Below are positions 3,255-31,146 of a stretch of 64,000 bases of DNA, in pieces; the stretch's first letter is position 1; each line of letters begins with the position of its first letter. Below the pieces are notes generated by a model that saw only the letters and a program-made list of their open reading frames with translations, was not told the origin of the DNA and did not search any database. The DNA comes from Camelus ferus (taxonomy: Eukaryota): contig NC_045696.1 of the NCBI RefSeq assembly GCF_009834535.1, positions 17,920,001 through 17,984,000 of the forward strand, written 5' to 3'. The position numbers and the translations under genes are program-made.

Positions 3255-3370
3255 TAAATTTCACAACACCCCTGAGAGTTTACAAGAGAGATGTAAATAT
3301 ACCCTCCTTCCTACTGATGAGAAAACTTAGGCCTAGAAATGTGAGGTGATGATTCAAGGTTAAATGTATA
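3255..3370 (-). mobile_element. MIR fragment
   Basis: TCACAACACCCCTGAGAG...GATGAGAAAACTTAGGCCTAGAAATGTGAGGTGA. Confidence 0.6.
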
Positions 3371-6300
3371 ATTACTATAAAAAAAAAAAAAAACCTGAAG
3401 AACTTGTCTTCTCATCCTGTACCATCTGTATGAGATTATGATTTAATATCTTCCCATATACTTAATAATTTGACAGAAGCCACTTGCTTCCTTTCAGAAG
3501 CTAAATTTTAGGGGCACAACAAAAATGAGGATTAATGGTAAAGAACAGATTATTGAGAACATTCCATTAAAAGATACTGCATTTTCTATCAGTTAACTCA
3601 GGGCAACTCATCATTGTCAACAAAAAATGTGTTCAGCTGCAATGTGGGCTATAATATACAAGCAATTACCCTATTTTTGATACTTCTTCTCATGATGTTT
3701 TGTTGTCATCATAATTATATTTATATCCATTACCACAGTCATTTCCAAATGTTGAACGGATTAGTTAAATAGAAAACAGGAATACAATTCTTACACTGGC
3801 AGTCTTATATTTATCATTGATTAGAAATAATCATTCTTTTTTTAAAATGAGAAACTGTTTTCCTCCTTATACTTTATTGACTATCAGTTTAAGTTCCAAG
3901 TTCTTTTTACCATATTAAAACTTTATATAAATTTAACATTTAAAATATTGTTGGATTCTACGTAGTTTAAGAATTAACCAGAAATTTGGAAAATTTTCAA
4001 TTTACTTACTTTGTAACTATTAAATTCAACATTCTTTAAACACCAAGAAACCAATATTTCCATTAACACACTACTTATGTCACTAAAATATAATTTACTA
4101 ATTTGATGCACTAACATTCATAAATATTCATTGTAAATTCATCTACTCAGATGGAAATATTTTAACAAATTAAAAAGTCTAATACAGATTTGAAGAAATT
4201 TAAGTACCTTAAAAATAAGATAAAACACAAACCATGATGATTATAGATATTATCTCACATTAAAATAGATTAAAAGCCCTAGTATATTAGATTAAATTTT
4301 AAATGTCTATGTTCATCCTTGTTTTGAACCTAAAGAAAAAGAATCCTTTTATGTCTATATCTTGCCAGCTTTACCCACTAAAGCTGGCAGAAATTGTATT
4401 GAATTCTATCTTCATAATTTTGCATGATTGCAGTGCACTTCCATGCTCAAAAGGATAACCATACAAAATACCATTTCAAGCTAGCCAAGCAAAGGTTTCA
4501 GGATCTGAGTTGTTGACCAAATGATGTTTAATTAGGAGAGAAGACATTGTTTTATTGTATAATTTTATCCAATCCTATCTATAGGGTCATTTAAAAACTT
4601 CTTTTCTATATGTGTCTTAAAAGAAATTTGAAGTCTCAGTTTTTCACAGAAATTTAGTTTCCAGAAACCTCCACTGTCAAATTGATACAATATTTAAATT
4701 TGTGTGACTGACATTACCTAACTCATTTTGCTATTAGAGTATATTAATCTAACCAATACATTATTTTAAACAGACATGCATATTCATCTATATATATTAT
4801 TTAAGCTATGCATATTTGTATGACATTTATATATTTAAATATGCATTATAGAATATCATAGATAGTATCTGTCTCTCATCCATTTATCATTGTGTTTTAG
4901 AATACATTGGGAATTGAAATATCACATTTCTTGAATCATACCATTATACTGCTTTTACTACAGCACTTCTTAATAGAAAGGATGACTGCTGTATTTAGGT
5001 AAACAAGTAAATAACTTTCAGCTTTGAAAGTAGCGAAATAAAACCCAAAGAACATTCAATCATTTTATTCAATGTAGAACTCCTAGAAATCTCATGACAG
5101 TGAAATAAATCCTACTAATTATGAAAAATAATGCATCCAGGATACTTAACTATTCCTAAATCGCTTATTTATGTGCTCTCCAAGTTATTTTACATAGACT
5201 TGAATTAATAATTTTAATAATAATAATCACCACAAAAATTCACTTGCTAACAAGTGAGAAAAAAAAGAATGAATTGGGGAATATACCTGCAAGAAATTTG
5301 TAACCAGCCAAGATGAGATCACTCACAAGAAATGGCACAAACGACTAGCATTTCAATTTTTTAAATTACCAAAAGAAATTAAGTCTATATGTATATATAT
5401 AGGCAGCAAGTTTTATTGGTTTTTGGATAGTGTGTATATACGTAAAAGAAGGATTCAGAATTCAGAATGGCTTCTTTATTTTTATTTAATTAGGTGCCCC
5501 AATGCTTTTCCATCTTTGCTAACTGTTTGGCTTTGGAGACTTTCTAAGAAAATTAGCTTGCCTGATAAGAATGTTGAGAGTGGTTCTGTAATCGTGGTGA
5601 TAATCATGAGTCTAAACATTACCTCAGGAGCCTTTGCTGGAATGAATATTTTATTCCAAATCTGATACAGTCTGTGCTACAATCTCTCTGGCCCTTCACT
5701 GGGCTCCACTGCCAATCAGCCTGGCCAAAGTCCTTCTGGATTAATGACTATGCAACACTGTCAACCAGCAATTAGCAGGAAGTCACCGTGACTTTATTCT
5801 ATGGTGAATTACAGCTGATTTGATGTTTCTTGATAGAGGAAAAGCACAGGGAATAATTCAGTGATATCCATATTAAAATCAAGTTAGTCTTACAAAAGCA
5901 CTTACTATCAATTGCTAAGAATCCTGATAAAGACTAATTTCTTAAAAATTCATCAGGAGACTAAAATTTATCTATTAAGTATGTAGTACCTATATCTTTG
6001 AACTTAGTTCATTTAGTGTTACGTTAAAATGTTTTATAGAGTGGATGATGGCATGTAAACAAGGCTTAGGAATTTGGGGGGTCATTATTTTAGTCATCTA
6101 GAATACGATTTAAATTGCTAAGGTCCCCTCAGATAGCTTTAAGATCTAGATACAGGTCCTATATGTAATTTGCTCATTACTGTTGAAGGCATAAATACAA
6201 TAATAAACACTTTTGAGTGAACGTTGGATTTCTCTGCAGAAGCACTGAAAGAGTATGGGTGGATGATCTACAGAAAGATAAAGATTATTGCAAATGGCTA

Positions 6301-7309
6301 TTATTCCAACAGAATTAGTCACAGTTGTCCTGAGGGGTCGGGAGACCTGTAAACAGCAAGATTCTCCTCTTTGTTTTTTCCTAACCAGAGTCTACTTTCT
6401 TCCTAAACCCTAATAGTCCTTTTTTCTTCTTTTATCCCCACCAAAACGTTCCTAGTTCTTTTGTTTCCTACTTATAACCCAATAAGAAGCATAGACTGTC
6501 AAGTATCCTATCTTACCCCTTAAGTGATCAAGGAAGATTTATTGAACGAACATTGGTGGCTTAAGGTATTATTGATTTTTTCTTAACTCCTATACAAATG
6601 TTCATGTGGTTTAACATGGCTGGTGGCCATTGCAAAAGGAAAACAGTCAAAGATTCTCCAGGTAACTTGGAAGTAAGGAATGTTACTTTTAACAGTCTAA
6701 TTAGGCTTCCTGTGAATTATGAAATGCATAGAATTTTTTAAAAGAGAGACAAACACATAAATTATCTTTCTCATGTACCCTGGTAATGACTTTGCATATT
6801 TAGTAATATGAACTCAGTTGCCAGTATAAGATCTAGTCTGGAAGCCTTTGGCAAAGATGGGAATTAATGTTGGGTAGGGAAGACTTGATTAACTATGGGA
6901 AAAGTTTAATGTCTTCTTGGTTTCAGACTTCGGATGTGAAAAAAATGTATGAATCACAAAATACAGGACAGAATCAAAACATCTAAGTAGAGGTCACATA
7001 ATGCATTATAGAGCCATAGAATGATTAATGTTGATTGCATGTGAATTTCTTTACAAGAGTGGTATTTTCAGGTTTAACTCTACACTGAAGGAACATTCTA
7101 ACTCAAGATTAAATTATAAAACTACATTTCCTGTTTAGGGAATTTATTCATTGAACTAGTTATTATTAAAAGATGGAGGAGAATGGAATAAATGCCAATA
7201 ATAATAAAAGTTGCAACCATCTTTAAAGGTAATCACTTCTATATAGATGGAATAGGCCATCTAGAGAGTTTCTACTAAGTCCTAGAAATTGTTCTCTTCA
7301 CATTCATAT

Positions 7310-24808: not shown

Positions 24809-24920
24809 CCCTCTACTGCTAAAAACTTTCTTTATAGGATATGGTGGTTAAGATACTAGCTGTAACTTCAGTTTGTGCCTGATACTCCTCTTTTCTTGAC
24901 TCTGACGTTTACAGTACTTC

Positions 24921-25373
24921 TGTGAAGGAAAAACCAGGCTGGACTAACAAGATAACTCACAGGTATAGGAACGTGAAGGAGAGGCTGGGCTGCGCTAACA
25001 AGTCTAAGTATTGGAATACTGATCTGAGTTCTGCTGGACTAACTTGTAAATCTAGGTTAATTAGCGTTGGTTTGCTGTTCATGTTTTTTTGCTAGCCAGC
25101 TGGATTTTCAAAGATACATATCTGGCTTTGGAATGTTGGCTTGCTGCCTCCCCGCCTCCACCTTTGTGATGATAATGCTGCTAAAGCTGTTCCATGCCTA
25201 TTGGCCGAATACCCCAAGCTTGTACTTTACCCTATAAAACCTCATGTGCACATCTTGAAGGTGCTCAGAGCTTCGGAGCAGAAGCCCCTCTGAGCCCGCC
25301 GGCGTAATACATCTGAGTACTCCAACCCTCCGAGTGGTGCTTGTTTCTTGGCTGGCCTGTCGTTTCTGTAACA
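24921..25373 (+). repeat. 5' LTR (453 bp)
   Basis: Starts TGTGAAGG and ends GTAACA. Reverse CCAAT (ATTGG) at 25200-25204, TATAAAA at 25233-25239, AATACA at 25306-25311. By-eye alignment to the 3' LTR gives 11 substitutions and 1 indel. Confidence 0.97.
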
Positions 25374-25377
25374 TTTC

Positions 25378-25395
25378 TGGAGGCCCCAGTGAGAT
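25378..25395 (+). promoter_or_regulatory. Primer-binding site complementary to the tRNA-Thr 3' end
   Basis: TGGAGGCCCCAGTGAGAT lies 4 nt after the 5' LTR. It matches the reverse complement of mammalian tRNA-Thr ...ATCTCGCTGGGGCCTCCA at 17/18 positions; the mismatch is a CpG transition. Confidence 0.85.
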
Positions 25396-26513
25396 ACAAC
25401 CACGCCGGCCCCTTGAGCCGCTGGACTGGTGGCTCCAGCCGACCGGGGGACAGGATTCTGGCAGCAAATGAGGTGGCGCCGCCCGATGATATTTCGGGTT
25501 CTCTTTCGTGACAGGCAACTCGGCCCCCGGGTGGCTGGGCTACAACCAGATCCAGACTCCATGGAGGGACGGACAGACTCACCAGGTGGCCGTCCGGACA
25601 AGGTAGGAACCCCTGGGAGGTATCAGGTCCTGTCCCATTGGACAGAAGAGGAGGCGGATCCCCTCCTACAGGAAACAGGATATTGGTATTGGTGGGAAGA
25701 ATGTTGTTAACCTCTGTGTGTGTGTGTGAGTGAATGAGCGGCCTGTGAAGCATGCGATCAGGCTCGAGTTTGTAGCTCCACAGCATTCTGCTACGGAGTT
25801 CGAGTGAGTCCCAACCTGCAGTTCCGTGGTGACCTCATACGGCTCAGGGCGGTATCGGTCCCTCAGGGTCCCGATCGGAGTCAGCGGCTTATACAGACCC
25901 GCCAAAGCTAAGAGGCACCTTCATCCCCACGAGGGGAGCGGCCAGGCGGACACAACGAAAACCCTCCCTTGTCTTGTCTGCGACACTGGCACAGGGTGGC
26001 TACACTGGGAGGGAAAAGGACATAGATAGCCAATGAGTCAACGCCCCTGTGCCCTCGGAGGCTAGGATGCTATTTCTTTGAAAAGTATCCTACCTGATTC
26101 TGTCACAGAACACCCGAGACTTAGTTTCCCCTACAGAACAGACCCACGTAGTGCCCCTTTTGCCTACCCCCAGGCCCCCAGGACTCGAGTTTAGAAGACG
26201 AATTCCTTCAGGACCGGGCTTACCTGGCCTTGGAGGTCCCTTTTCTAGTCCATTTGTTTTACCATCTGCCATCAGTCCCACGCCCCTGATACATTAGTTC
26301 AGGATATAGAGAGGATTTAATGAAGAAAGTCCCTGGAACTGCTTGGGGCCTTGAGCTCCAGAGACATCAGCTGTGACTGGAACCCAGACTCCTTGACCAA
26401 ATTAGCCTTCAGACAACTCATAGACCCAGCAAGAGAGCAGTCTCTCTGGGAACTCCGGTGTTTTGAGGAGTGAAGAAAAGATATAAAGGCTACCTTCCCA
26501 AACATCTAAAAAA

Positions 26514-28272
26514 ATGGGAGGCTCTAAGTCAAAACCCGCCACTCTAGACTGCATGATTAAGAATTTCAAAAAGGGGTTCCCAGGAGACTGTGGAATTTGA
26601 ATGACCCCTGGCAGGCTCCGCACTTTGTGTGAGCTTAAATGGCTGGCCTTTGGAGTCGTGTGGCCCTCAGGAGGAACTCTGGACCTAGCAACAGTGTGAG
26701 CAGTCTATCAAATAATCAGTGGAACCCCAGGCCACCCAGATCAATTCCCTTACATTGACTCCTGGCTGAATATCGCCCATACTCTACCCCCATGGATTCG
26801 GTTCTGCCCAAATGGACCTGGACAATGTAAAATATTAGCAGCCCAGCCAGTCCAGGCCAAAAAGACAGACAGAAAAAAACCTATTTTCCAGGGAGACGCA
26901 GAAGACAGATATGCCTACCCCCTCCGTATGCCCCCGGGGCAACAACAGCCTCCCGTCTGAGGACCCAGAGGCAGAGCCCAGCCCCCAGCCTGAGCCGGTA
27001 GGAAGGAGAATCCGCTCAGCACAAGCCGGGAAGCCAGCACCACTGGCCCTCCAAATGCCGCTGCAGGAGACACAAGGGCCACAACAAGTTGGGGAAAACA
27101 GGACTGTTCAGCCTGGGAACCCCGTAATCTGCTACCAACCCTTTAGCACCACAGCCCTTCTCAGTTGGCGCCATCATACTCCTTCCTACTCTGAAAAGCC
27201 GCCCAGCAATAGCAGCAGCAGCAGCCCCTGCAGCCCTGGCACCGCCTCCACCTCGGCCGCCGCCTCCATGGCAACTGTCGGGGAACGCCAGCCCCTGCCC
27301 AGTCCCAAAGCGATGCTGGGACAGCCTTGGGCTCTTTTGCAAAGTCATACAAATATTTGGTCTCTGTCCAGCCCACGAGGATTTCTACTTGGTGGTATAT
27401 GACGACTGTAATCAGGCTGCCAAGCCGCAGGCTATGATTGACCTCGTAGAGTCTATCTTCCATTCTCACCAGCCCACCTGGGAAGATGTCTGCTTCTGAC
27501 TCTTTTCAATACGGAGGAGAGGAGAAGCATTCTCACTGAAGCATGAAAATGGCTGCAGGGCCAAGCCCCTGGGGACACAATGGATGTTGAGGGATGGGCC
27601 ATGACACATGCCCCTGACACCAGACCAGACTGGGACTTTAACACCCAAAAAGGAAGAGAAGCGCTGCATGAGTACCAGGAGGCCATCCTACAAGGGCTAA
27701 GAGCGGGAGCCAAGAAGCCAACTAACATGTCTAAAATGACCATGGTGACCCAGAGGCCAGATGGAACCCCCACTGACTTCTATGAGAGACTATGTGAAGC
27801 ATTCCGAGTCTACACTCCTTTTGATCCTGAGGCCCAAGAAAACCAGCAGATGGTCAACGCTGCCTTCGTAGCCCAATCATACCCAGATATATGCCAGAAA
27901 CTCCAAAAACTGGATGGATTCACAGGGATGAACGCTACACAGCTGCTGGAAGTAGCAAACAAAGTTTTTGTAAACCAAGAACGGGAAGCCCAATGAGAAG
28001 CAGACCAGCAAATGAAGCAGAAAGCCACTCCTTGCAGCAGCCCTGGGGAAAACAAGCTTCAGCCAGAATCCTGCACCACCCCGGAAGAGGGGACCCCAAC
28101 CATGGATGCCCCTGGGCCGAGACCAGTGCGCATACTGCCGAGAGACAGGACACTGGAAGAACGAGTGCCCAAACAGAAAGGATGGAAAGAGAGCACCCCC
28201 AAAAGGCCTACTTATCAGCTGGAGCCACCAGCCAGTAATCACATCAGACTGACTGGGGTCGACTTAGAATAG
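26514..28272 (+). pseudogene. gag: ERV gag (MA-p12-CA-NC), disrupted
   Basis: MGGSKSKPATLDCMIKNFKKGF...GHPDQFPYIDSW (HERV-E-like MA); PPPY late motif near 26918; CA YQPFS...TPSYSEKP/QAMIDLVESIFHSHQPTWED; MHR-like TQRPDGTPTDFYERLCEA; NC knuckle CAYCRETGHWKNEC from 28127. TGA stops at 26598, 26697, 27544 and 27994, plus frameshifts. The terminal TAG (28270-28272) is in frame with pro. Confidence 0.95.
27202..27427 (+). pseudogene. ATXN7: Captured fragment of cellular ataxin-7 mRNA inside gag
   Basis: CAG-rich tract (27204-27224), then PGTASTSAAASMATVGERQPLPSPKAMLGQPW, then in a shifted frame GLFCKVIQIFGLCPAHEDFYLVVYDDCNQAAKPQA. These match recalled ATXN7 GPGAASTSAAAMATVGERRPLPSPEVMLGQSW and [35 protein letters not shown]. 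Flanked by AAGCCG direct repeats. Confidence 0.9.
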
Positions 28273-28760
28273 GAGAGACTGCGCTCCCTGCTCCTGGGCC
28301 CCCGGGAGCCCAAGGTCAAGATGTTTATAGGGGGCCAACCAATGACTTTTATGGTAGACACAGGAGCAGAGTATTCTGTGGTGACCCAACCTGTAGCCTC
28401 CCTGACCCAGAAAAAGGTGACTATTATAGGGGCTACTGGGGAATCAACTGCCCGCCATTTCTGCCAACCACGATCCTGTCAAGTAGGGGGCCATCTAGTG
28501 ACACATGCCGTTATTCACTGTAAGGGACCATATTCAGTGGTATTAACTACCCCTACAGCTGTTAAAGTTGCAGGAATCATCCCTTGGATCCACCTCTCCA
28601 GGGTTAAGAGAGCGACTTCACCTCAGACAGAGGGTCCCTGGAAAATTGAGAGTGTCCAGGGAGACCCGCTCAAGATCAAGATCAAGAGGGACCAGAAAGG
28701 AATCGACAAGCCCTGCTCTAGCCACACCTGGAAGCTGGCTAGTCAACGCACGGCCGAAGC
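28273..28760 (+). pseudogene. pol: ERV pro-pol remnant: protease N-terminal part fused to an RNase H scrap and the integrase C-terminus; RT deleted
   Basis: Aspartic protease motif FMVDTGAEYSVV; AVIHCKG at 28507-28527 (RNase H motif); KGPYSVVLTTPTAVKVAGIIPWIHLSRVKRA (gamma-type IN C-terminal GPY/F region). No YxDD motif present. Confidence 0.93.
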
Positions 28761-28951
28761 TCGAGGAAAGCTCAACGCAGCTGTTAAATGTATTAATTTT
28801 GTGCTCCCTTGCCTCTTTCCTTGTTTGCTATACTAGTCTGCGTATTAGCAGTGGGGCTAGCTAGCGCCGCCCCACCTGACTGGAACATAGGCCATAGAAT
28901 CCTGATAGCTACTTTATATCTTGTTATAATTAGTGCCATCACTGCAGCATC

Positions 28952-29537
28952 ATGTCTAAGATAATCATAAGGCTGATGTTACTGACGCTAATGCCCTCAC
29001 TCTCCTTGGCTGTACAATGCACCTGCATGGAACCGGGTGACAAATGGTCCATGTACCAACCTGTATTTTCAGCTTACAGGTGAATTCAGCCACGATCTCC
29101 AACAAATAACAGAAACCCTGGGAACTCTGCAAAATCAGATTGACTCTCTGGCCGAGGTGGTCTTACAAAACAGGAGGGATCTGTACCTTACTCACGGCCA
29201 AAGAGGGGGGACTATGCCTCTCCCTAAAACGAAGAGTGCTGTTTTTATGCCAATCAATCAGAAATTGTCAGAGAGATGGTTCAAGAGTTACAAGACCGAG
29301 TAAAAAGAGAAAACATATTTTAAATAAGAGCCCATGGACCCCCTGGCTGGCACTGTTCATAGGCCCCTTACTCCTGATTTTTGCAGTTCTGCTGTTTGGG
29401 CCCTGTGTCCTAAACTTCCTGACCCACTTTGTCAGTGAGTGGATAGAGGCTATAAAACTTCAGATGTTAGCCTCTAATTATGAGCCCTCGCAACAGATAA
29501 GTGATGATGTTACTCCAACTAGAGTTGTGAAAGCATC
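28952..29537 (+). pseudogene. env: ERV env remnant: signal peptide plus TM, SU largely deleted
   Basis: MSKIIIRLMLLTLMPSLSLAVQCTC (signal-like); heptad and ISD LQNQIDSLAEVVLQNRRDLYL/LTAKEGGLCLSL..ECCFYANQS (CX6CC, frameshifted); membrane span WLALFIGPLLLIFAVLLFGPCVLNFL. Confidence 0.92.
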
Positions 29538-29549
29538 AAGAGGGGGGAA
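29538..29549 (+). promoter_or_regulatory. Polypurine tract
   Basis: AAGAGGGGGGAA immediately 5' of the 3' LTR. Confidence 0.93.
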
Positions 29550-30001
29550 TGTGAAGGAAAAACCAGGCTGGACTAACAAGATAACTCACAGGTCTAGGAA
29601 TGTGAAGGAGAGGCTGGGCTGTGCTAACAAGTCTAAGTATTGGAATACTGATCTGAGTTCTGCCGGACTAACTTGTAAATTTGGTTAATTAGCGTTGGTT
29701 TGCTGTTCATGTTTTTTTGCTAGCCAGCTGGATTTTCAAAGATACATATCTGGCTTTGGAATGTTGGTTTGCTGCCTCCCCGCCTCCACTTTTGTGATGA
29801 TGATGCTGCTAAAGCTGTTCCATGCCTATTGGCCGAACACCCCAAGCTTGTACTTTACCCTATAAAACCTCATGTGCACGTCTTGAAGGTGCTCAGAGCT
29901 TCGGAGCAGAAGCCCCTCTGAGCCCGCCGGCGTAATACATCTGAGTACTCCAACCCTCCGAGTGGTGCTTGTTTCTTGGCTGGCCTGTCGTTTCCGTAAC
30001 A
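29550..30001 (+). repeat. 3' LTR (452 bp)
   Basis: Near-identical copy of 24921-25373, preceded by the PPT and followed by the CTTC TSD. Confidence 0.97.
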
Positions 30002-31146
30002 CTTCCTTTCACTAAATGCTGTATTTACAATTCCTACTGGCTTAAGTGTTTTTTTTTTTTTTTTAACCATGCGTTTTTGGAAATAATTTATAAAACTAAG
30101 ATTTTTTTTTTTTGTTAAAGAGTTTAAATGAATTTTGAGCAAATATTTAAAAAATACAGTTTTAGGGTAATATTAAAAGACCCCATACAAGGAGCACGTT
30201 TATACCCACTCCCTGCTTCAAAATGGGCCATCAATACAGACTCCTCTCCTCCCCTAGTCTCTTCTCACACTATTCCATGGCTCTTTTCTGTTTTTTGTCA
30301 TGAATACCAGTATCATGTGCATATTCTTTATGCCCATTGTTAATTAGTAACATACTTGGCTTTATGTTGATGCTTAATAAAACATAATTGGTGAGGAGTT
30401 GAATTTTTCATGTAATATATATCTAAATATTTTGTCAAGTAAGTAAATATAAATGTATTGAATCTCTATTAATATTCAAAATGCTTTTCCAGAAGTAGTA
30501 ATTTACAGTATCAATTTTGAACTACAGACTTTCAGATTTTAGGTCCTGAATTACTCTAGTGCTTTCAAGTGGGTTGTGGGTGTTCAACAATTGTTTTAAA
30601 TGTTTCTCTTTTTCTGAAGGCCTTGTTTTAAATGCTGTAAACTTCAAAAGGATAGAAGACCTATTATCTGTAATGATTCAATTTTTTAAAAAATCATTCA
30701 TACTTTGAGTAAACTGAAATGTGCTCCCTGTGGTATTTTCCCTACACTAAGAACTAGTCATTACTGAGAAGTTTAATGTATAATAATTGCTCTTCTATCA
30801 CCTGTTTTACGAAACAAAAATTTATTATCCTTATTTTAGTTTCCCAGGTAAAGAACATTTAAATGTGAGGATATCTGCACAGAACTGAAATGCAGATAAC
30901 GAGACTGAATTCAAACAATTAAGACAACTATGAGGCCAAAGGACAACTTTTAAACTGCTTTTGGAGTTTATAAACTGAGTTCATATATTTCTTTAGGTAT
31001 AGAAATCAGATGAAGCATGAAAATCTTACTTCTCGTTATACATTACTTGTAATTATAATTTTTTCTCTTCTAAACATTTTTGCCCCAAAGGGTTATGAAA
31101 TAGTTCAGTGTTCTCGAAAGACACTGAATACTATGGATCATACCAT

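Follow-up and report, generated by a model that had tools for sequence, protein, structure and literature searches.

How does part of the host gene ATXN7 come to lie inside the capsid (CA) region of a retroviral gag gene? The question is raised by a 64,000-nucleotide (nt) stretch of the Camelus ferus genome (the window; contig NC_045696.1, positions 17,920,001 to 17,984,000), in which an endogenous retrovirus (ERV) similar to murine leukemia virus (MLV) occupies positions 24921-30001. This provirus is 5.1 kb long and deleted in pol and env, and an insert of 226 bp (27198-27423) splits the CA part of its gag gene. The original prediction, made by reading the window without database searches, was that the insert is a fragment of ATXN7 mRNA captured in the way that retroviruses capture oncogenes. 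We report here that the insert belongs to a family of ERV copies, that the longer members of this family contain ATXN7 exons in a circularly permuted order, and that they are probably the result of one lap of reverse transcription around a circular RNA (circRNA).

Spliced ATXN7 sequence inside gag

At the insertion site, viral sequence reading ...TCTGAAAA (...CATACTCCTTCCTACTCTGAAAA) is followed by 226 GC-rich bases and then by GCCGCAGGCTATGATT... (GCCGCAGGCTATGATTGACCTCGTAGAG). The hexamer AAGCCG stands at 27196-27201 and again at 27422-27427, so the predicted structure, a GC-rich insertion between two AAGCCG copies in the capsid sequence, was confirmed. The two peptides on which the prediction was based are both present in the list of open reading frames (ORFs), but in two different frames: PGTASTSAAASMATVGERQPLPSPKAMLGQPW in the ORF at 26839-27402, which also spans gag upstream of the insert, and GLFCKVIQIFGLCPAHEDFYLVVYDDCNQAAKPQAMIDLVESIFHSHQPTWED in the ORF at 27128-27499. 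In a HMMER alignment the latter ORF matches human Ataxin-7 (PDB 7ktr_N, residues 126-164) with an E-value of 4.1e-9, and the predicted identity of 21/27 residues was upheld. After the Ataxin-7 match this ORF continues into MLV-type capsid residues 31-54, where the PDB matches are weak (E 0.2-0.6).

We searched the 2.09-Gb assembly at the DNA level using positions 27190-27440 as the query. The 42 rows obtained correspond to 38 distinct ERV places (71-100% identity), two extra fragments of two of these places, and two pieces of contig C17. The C17 pieces are on the minus strand, 38.5 kb apart, and match at 85% and 89% identity (E 5e-26 and 2e-24). They are exons of ATXN7: the first of them, exon A, has a translation that matches Ataxin-7 residues 13-108 (E 1.3e-40), and by mapping the dog Ataxin 7 protein to the genome we located the whole gene at C17:14471393-14551462. 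Host exons were defined by reading the host DNA and by pattern search, and their borders are canonical AG/GT. Four exons, all on the minus strand, are relevant to the insert: exon U (98 nt, 5' untranslated region, C17:14564913-14564816), exon A (355 nt, containing the ATG and the CAG tract, C17:14551505-14551151), exon I (69 nt, C17:14550923-14550855) and exon B (105 nt, C17:14512772-14512668), which is part of the N-terminal zinc-finger region of ATXN7. Their combined length in the present-day host is 627 nt. They appear to correspond to human exons 2-5, following the numbering in the accessible part of PMC13313202, where the CAG tract is in exon 3. In host exon A (locus L014, C17:14550191-14552297, minus strand), the frame of the ATG (MSERAADDVKGEPRR...) and the frame of the polyalanine/polyglutamine tract differ by one base, which may be due either to an assembly indel in this very GC-rich stretch or to a real species difference.

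The insert in the window is composed of parts of three of these exons, in sense orientation, as template switching requires. Positions 27198-27328 are a remnant of exon A, the equivalent of human exon 3 (85% identity to host exon A on C17, E 2e-31); this remnant reads ...PGTASTSAAASMATVGERQPLPSPKAMLGQPW, its identity to the host includes GCCGCCCGGCAGCAG..., and it contains a remnant of the CAG tract at 27204-27225. Its first five bases, GCCGC, are common to the viral site. Positions 27329-27344 are the last 16 nt of exon I, the equivalent of human exon 4 (the host exon ends in GGGCTCTGTCGCGAAG followed by gt, C17:14550853-14550870), and positions 27345-27423 are the first 79 nt of exon B, the equivalent of human exon 5, ending ...CNQAAK (89% identity to C17:14512685-14512774). 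A deletion at a microhomology connects the exon I piece to exon A, and its junction with exon B is the exact splice junction. Because the insert has no introns it must have arrived via RNA, and it is close to certain that it is host ATXN7 sequence that passed through spliced RNA. The source is ATXN7 itself and not a paralogue, in agreement with the prediction, because the best cellular match is ATXN7 on C17 and the paralogue exons on C7 and C9 match far worse. These paralogue exons (C7:76364196-76490722 and C9:77708332-77708454) have their own splice sites and are not ERV copies; the one on C9 had initially been listed as a candidate extra copy, L058.

Permuted exon order in the long copies

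Using probes from both sides of the insert, we fetched matching loci and aligned them, and found three states of the site: empty, short and long. These searches score the best candidates only, and every copy count is therefore a lower bound. Inserts are present at 38 or more places, 22 of them long and 16 short. The short state, of about 226 bp, comprises the window copy and 15 others, all of which share the 5' junction GAAAA/GCCNCCCAGC. The long state, of about 430-470 bp, includes exon U in 21 places, and in one more (L057) exon U is present with a 35-nt internal deletion. The empty site that had been predicted, GAAAAGCCGCAGGCTATG, exists: all 12 of the candidate empty relatives that we fetched read ...TCTGAAAAGCCGCAGGCTATGATT... 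without interruption, and in comparison to these 12 copies no viral base is missing at the insertion site. Among the best 40 capsid matches, 22 are filled, 12 are verified empty, and six could be classed as neither; a 356-bp probe from upstream of the insert matches 40 family places. Upstream of the insert, two versions of the gag sequence exist, of 356 and approximately 400 nt (a difference of about 44 nt; 80-82% identity). L015 (C14:46583231-46583630), which is otherwise the closest relative of the window copy, has the version usually found in empty copies, which points to recombination between lineages.

In all eight long copies that we read, the insert begins with the 3' end of exon B, continues through the complete exon U, exon A and the end of exon I, and finishes with the 5' part of exon B. 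Specifically, viral GAAAA is followed by ACYGCAGGCATTTCAATCACATTATG, which is the last 28 nt of exon B, ending ...CATTATG; by the complete exon U (GTCTAAAC...AAAG); by exon A, which is complete at its 5' end, has lost an internal piece downstream of the CAG tract and is truncated at ...GGACAGTC; by the last 16-23 nt of exon I; and by exon B from its first base to ...GTCAA, after which viral sequence resumes with GCCGCAGGCTATG. The U/A and I/B joints are normal splice junctions, and the I/B junction is kept in all seven long copies tested, in L057, and in the window copy. The B/U joint connects the exact donor site of exon B (...CATTATG/gt) to the exact acceptor site of exon U (ag/GTCTGAAC...) in 8/8 copies, and it is free of indels in the seven long copies that were aligned as well as in L057. 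Since exon U is located 52 kb upstream of exon B in the gene, this joint is a back-splice junction, and the exon order of the long copies is permuted and back-spliced. Both ends of the insert fall on one and the same base of exon B, and entry and exit at the same place amount to one lap of a 627-nt circle.

Other properties of the inserts also fit a circular source. Only circle exons are represented: 39 rows from ERV copies match dog Ataxin 7 within residues 34-229, no downstream exon was matched, and what stands before exon U is exon B and not an exon 1. There is no poly(A) in the insert, which ends in viral sequence without a run of A. The features that define circRNA-derived retro-sequences according to Dong et al. 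(2016, PMC4897178) are a back-splice-type junction and the presence of circle exons only, with no poly(A), and both were found here. The window's own short copy does not contain the B/U junction. A contig from the public sequencing run X3 reads ...CAGGCATTTCAATCACATTATGGTCT directly after the viral flank (loose end at 27197), with the same B/U junction.

All copies have two internal deletions in the captured part, which therefore arose before the family spread. The first is between two GCCCC motifs after the CAG/CCG repeats. The second is between AGTCGTGG in exon A and AGTCATGG in exon I, and is out of frame; L050 and L057 retain its plain junction, CAGTCATGGGGCTC. The microhomologies at these deletions are signs of jumping by reverse transcriptase (RT). 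In the short form a further deletion extends from the 5' motif to GCCGCCC, immediately upstream of the CAG tract, and this form is a secondary deletion product of the long insert. In this way it lost the back-splice junction and exon U, which is why the window, viewed alone, resembles a colinear mRNA fragment. The proposal of a captured ATXN7 mRNA fragment is right as regards spliced host ATXN7 RNA but not supported as regards a linear mRNA, which does not account for the circularly permuted order of the long form.

Both ends of the insert are marked by a short homology between the virus and exon B, AAGCCGCAGGC in the virus and AAACCGCAGGC in the host, which is 11 nt long with 10/11 identities; in the window the 3' crossover point is at 27422-27432 (plus strand). 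The virus reads GAA AAG CCG CAG GCT and the host reads GTC AAA CCG CAG GCA, so that KPQA is encoded in both, in the same frame, and AA-N-CCGCAGGC is common to them. At the 5' joint the variable base is the host-type A (GAAAA-A-CYGCAGGCATTT in 7/7 long copies), so the motif is there in its host form, and at the 3' joint it is the viral-type G (GTCAA-G-CCGCAGGCTATG in all long copies). This is the pattern predicted by two switches at the 5' edge of the homology. We considered whether the AAGCCG repeat is a target duplication and rejected this, as it is the remnant of the longer viral/host homology AA[G/A]CCGCAGGC. Two more exact matches of 9 nt, CCAGCCCAC (exon B) and CCTGGGAAG (exon A), occur in the ~65 nt that follow the insertion site, at approximately 2356-2420 of the L054 provirus, equivalent to 27424-27490 of the window. 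This cluster of short homologies, which was noticed post hoc, may have aided a template switch or may be due to chance.

A probable circular template and its alternatives

We think it likely that, at the homology, RT left the viral RNA for a circular ATXN7 RNA, made one lap, and switched back. The circle would have consisted of exons U, A, I and B. During minus-strand synthesis, RT would first have copied the whole viral motif in the capsid region, after which the nascent DNA would have left the viral RNA and annealed to the near-identical motif in exon B of a co-packaged circle. RT would then have run 3' to 5' through exons B, I, A and U, and over the back-splice junction into the end of exon B. 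There it would have met the motif and copied it a second time, and it could have returned to the viral RNA at the homologous place. In the observed inserts the virus has lost no base, and a copy of the motif flanks the insert on each side. Because the insert puts a stop codon in the gag frame, the recombinant would have been defective and would have multiplied using the proteins of helper relatives; later deletions and recombination would have generated the pol-deleted 5-kb forms and the short 226-bp insert of the window copy. The genomic DNA preserves the product of these steps and not the process. The human ATXN7 locus produces several circRNAs of 336-1106 nt, all of which contain exon 3, according to the accessible part of PMC13313202.

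Several observations weigh against this interpretation. The B-to-U circle in this host is deduced from the DNA, and a circle of exons 2-5 is not among the human ATXN7 circRNAs in the accessible part of PMC13313202. We compared 3 kb of the intron preceding exon U with 3 kb of the intron following exon B and found no inverted repeats at E 1e-5, a test that says little, as it covered a small part of introns that far exceed 3 kb. We met no report of circRNAs being packaged by retroviral particles. What we see are already derivatives of the primary product, as both internal deletions are present in every copy. The junction homology is of unremarkable length: each of three family proviruses has 37-61 exact matches of at least 8 nt to the circle exons, some of them (10-11 nt) longer than the one that was used, so the site is not singled out by homology. 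In a tree made from 400 columns of flanking sequence, filled copies are parted from empty ones by a single change, but with weak support (51/91), and recombination, as seen in deletion classes that are common to filled and empty copies, blurs the history. Lastly, a linear RNA with repeated exons would yield an identical product.

Such an RNA, ...U-A-I-B-U-A-I-B..., could be made by trans-splicing that repeats exons, or from an ancestral tandem duplication of the region from U to B, and RT would enter it at the motif in one exon B and leave at the motif in the preceding exon B. The exact B/U junction and the duplicated motif are expected from this route too, and the DNA cannot tell a circle from a repeat. 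However, the present host gene has a single U, A, I and B, with one host match each for U, A and B. Exon-repetition transcripts are also far rarer than circRNAs, and for these reasons we regard an exon-repeat template as unlikely; human ATXN7 is moreover a documented source of circRNAs (accessible part of PMC13313202). Microhomology at both junctions is equally what would be left by repair of DNA, if a circRNA had been copied into cDNA (for example by LINE-1 RT) and the cDNA then placed in an integrated provirus by microhomology-mediated repair, with that provirus becoming the master copy. circRNA-derived pseudogenes do occur outside ERVs (PMC4897178). We consider this route distinctly unlikely, since it needs a DNA break exactly at the motif, a cDNA whose ends are at the same motif one lap apart, and a hit in the very provirus whose descendants later reached 38 places. 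In retroviruses, by contrast, such joints are routinely formed by copy-choice between RNAs packaged together.

Classical transduction, in which read-through from a provirus upstream of or within ATXN7 would have captured a linear mRNA that was rearranged later, is very unlikely. It would suit the window copy taken alone, which is colinear (A, I, B) and spliced, and germline ERVs with captured host mRNAs are known, namely KIT-ligand and nectin3 in crocodilians (accessible part of PMC4299795). But the window form is a subset of the long form, with the same internal deletions, and in every long copy read exon U follows the end of exon B, with both splice sites exact; for a rearrangement to land exactly on two exon borders is very improbable. 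Nor does the insert contain an exon 1, an exon past B, or poly(A), and no viral sequence was replaced, with one motif lying at both junctions. The predicted likeness to oncogene capture fails on the same grounds–the permuted order with its exact back-splice junction and the absence of viral loss–and also because no ATXN7 frame is kept. An assembly artefact or a chance resemblance is scarcely credible, given the 38 genomic places, most of them with their own flanks and target site duplications (TSDs), the contigs from independent runs of two organisms, and E-values of 1e-24 to 1e-40; the insert is not an assembly chimera.

The carrier provirus and the spread of the family

The carrier in the window was correctly identified as an MLV-like ERV, with Pfam matches to Gag_MA, Gag_p30, RVP, MLVIN_C and TLV_coat, all MLV-type domains. 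Its features are on the plus strand. The 5' long terminal repeat (LTR; TG...CA, 24921-25373) begins with TGTGAAGG... directly after the 5' copy of the TSD, CTTC (24917-24920), and the 3' LTR (29550-30001) ends with ...GTAACA directly before the 3' copy, CTTC (30002-30005). The two LTRs are the same at 444/457 aligned positions, a Kimura two-parameter (K2P) distance of 0.023. Two TG...CA LTRs and a 4-bp TSD are as in gammaretrovirus-like (class I) ERVs. A candidate primer-binding site, TGGAGGCCCCAGTGAGAT, is at 25378-25395, 4 nt past the 5' LTR. The part of gag upstream of the insert (26700-27197) comprises matrix (MA), a p12-like region and the first ~30 residues of CA, ending ...HTPSYSEK; the Gag_MA match in the window (26700-26960) has an E-value of 1.5e-5, which is under the curated cutoff. 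The rest of gag (27424-28272), with CA and a downstream region, contains frame breaks and matches Gag_p30 at 27547-27996 (E 5.8e-34). It is followed at 28273-28836 by the N-terminal part of protease fused to the C-terminal domain of integrase (RVP and MLVIN_C in a single ORF), approximately 3.15 kb of pol being missing, equivalent to positions 3450-6602 of the 8.1-kb copy L054 that we used as a ruler. Remnants of the transmembrane part of env are at 28992-29688 and match TLV_coat at profile positions 424-559 only.

The family has lost coding capacity at the insert. In the gag frame, the long copies read SEK-LQAFQSHYG-L(N/S)KIKK...NNSR-stop, with the stop 26 codons into the insert; this codon is a stop in host exon U too. 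Of 21 filled copies, not one has a gag frame that is open across the insert, and the insert does not keep an ATXN7 reading frame. We considered a function for an insert-encoded protein and rejected it on account of the stops, the frame breaks, and the splitting of the zinc-finger region by the permutation. Protein database searches with the chimeric 123-amino-acid ORF found no annotated Gag-ATXN7 chimera: a search at near-length gave three hits, each covering 17-18% of the query, and a search at longer lengths gave dog Ataxin 7 (E 2.5e-7) and one other hit.

The window copy is not a one-off capture fossilized at its locus, as had been thought, but one of 38 family copies. Two LTRs are present in 20 copies; 15 of these are flanked by their own perfect 4-bp TSD, two have flanks that match at 3/4 positions, and three are not evaluable. 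K2P distances between LTRs range from 0.004 (L033) to about 0.11 (L025, L026, L028 and L031), although some LTR pairs are incomplete. Assuming a substitution rate typical of mammals, about 2.2e-9 per site per year, these distances suggest ages of very roughly 1 to 25 million years, and about 5 million for the window copy. With many independent integrations and lost coding capacity, the family has the marks of a non-autonomous ERV family. L021 (C37:17063113-17073112) and L022 (C37:18353799-18363798) are short forms 1.3 Mb apart on opposite strands; they are nearly identical, with end-branch lengths of 0.003-0.004 and equal bit scores, and are probably a segmental (inverted) duplication and not two integrations, so the 38 places need not all be separate integrations. 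Four 10-kb loci (L015, L017, L025 and L027) have extra LTRs of the same family within a few kb, some of them inverted, which suggests nested or clustered insertions.

Deletions in the backbone cut across the states of the site. Measured against L054, which is empty, positions 3450-6602 are missing in the window copy, in 13 other filled copies and in the empty copy L052, and positions 3295-5748 are missing in four filled copies and in the empty copy L053. Evidently, segments passed between filled and empty genomes, as happens between co-packaged retroviral RNAs. A long insert is also present in L026, a near full-length provirus of 8.6 kb with remnants of RVP, RVT_1, rve, TLV_coat and Gag_MA, so the capture is not tied to the deleted backbone; both L026 and its near full-length empty relative, L054, are degraded today. 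In the flank tree the short and long copies are intermixed, needing five changes for the three states, which we read as recombination or lack of signal; 400 columns are too few to establish the order of the two forms.

Public sequencing runs of two organisms, from several studies, contain 64-72% of the sampled words from the tested stretch (56% in two RNA-seq runs). Contigs from these runs cover the whole of this stretch, and the long form is also present among them. Record 23 of X3 bridges the 3' junction, and a 255-nt contig of the RNA run X17 bridges the 5' junction. The empty form occurs in contigs of X1, X3 and X15, which skip exactly 27196-27421. The RNA runs X15 and X17 have contigs over the insert, although contigs from RNA libraries do not show transcription.

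The closest parallel is the set of circRNA-derived pseudogenes that Dong et al. (2016, Cell Res 26:747, PMC4897178) defined by their reversed exon junctions–for example, 33 high-confidence copies of circRFWD2 in mouse, without poly(A) and with LTRs enriched in their flanks, made by a mechanism that they called 'mysterious'. The ATXN7 inserts resemble these in their back-splice junction, restriction to circle exons, lack of poly(A), and the many copies that derive from one source. They differ in that Dong et al. did not place the mouse copies in a retroviral gene, whereas the ATXN7 insert occupies one defined position in the CA region of gag in an MLV-like ERV, with a viral/host homology repeated at either end. 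Relatives with the empty site exist, the provirus carried the insert along as cargo when it spread, and both the gene and the host are different. Like the crocodilian elements CrocERV29 (KIT-ligand) and CrocERV31 (nectin3), which are colinear mRNA captures in the accessible part of Chong et al. (2014, PMC4299795), it is spliced host sequence inside an ERV lineage that multiplied in the germline; but the crocodilian captures have intact ORFs under purifying selection, and nectin3 replaces env, whereas the ATXN7 insert is permuted, has no ORF, and interrupts gag without any viral base being lost.

The family also shares some features with acutely transforming retroviruses, which transduce oncogenes by read-through and RT recombination. 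In these viruses colinear exons replace viral genes, the 5' junction comes from a chimeric read-through transcript, and the captured gene is expressed and selected in somatic tumours. Intronless host exons, a defective and probably helper-dependent virus, and at least one junction probably made by a template switch at short homology are common to both, but the ATXN7 family lacks the gene replacement, the colinearity, the expressed and selected gene, and the read-through 5' junction. Neither a colinear segment replacing viral genes nor a functional fusion protein, as in classical transducing retroviruses, was found. ETn, which is mobilized in trans by MusD, and deleted IAP forms are other non-autonomous ERV families, and as in those families internally deleted, non-coding proviruses outnumber their coding relatives, each with its own TSD. 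We know of no source for the foreign segment of ETn, unlike that of the ATXN7 family, which can be traced base by base to a circRNA-type host template. Neither an ERV with an ATXN7 segment nor the capture of a circRNA within a retroviral gene turned up as described in the literature, in a search that left subscription journals and repeat-database notes mostly outside its reach. What is new, on our best explanation, is a concrete mechanism joining two known phenomena, the retroviral capture of host sequences and circRNA-derived retro-sequences.

Retroviral capture of host genes is known almost only from linear mRNAs, and this family links it to the biology of circRNAs with an example resolved to the base, including a duplicated homology, a back-splice junction, a single lap, empty-site relatives, and a near full-length carrier. 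There is a reasonable probability that the family records the packaging of a host circRNA by a retrovirus followed by one lap of RT; if it does, circRNAs have a general way into genomes, where they are then multiplied as ERV cargo. This would account for the association of mouse circRNA-derived pseudogenes with LTRs. The family makes the question of how circRNAs return into DNA a testable one. A bolder form of the idea is that the insert-bearing lineage outgrew its parents because a truncated Gag or the captured RNA aided packaging, or escape from capsid-directed restriction. The family also shows that the CAG-repeat exon of a disease gene has been spread to dozens of loci in a mammalian germline.

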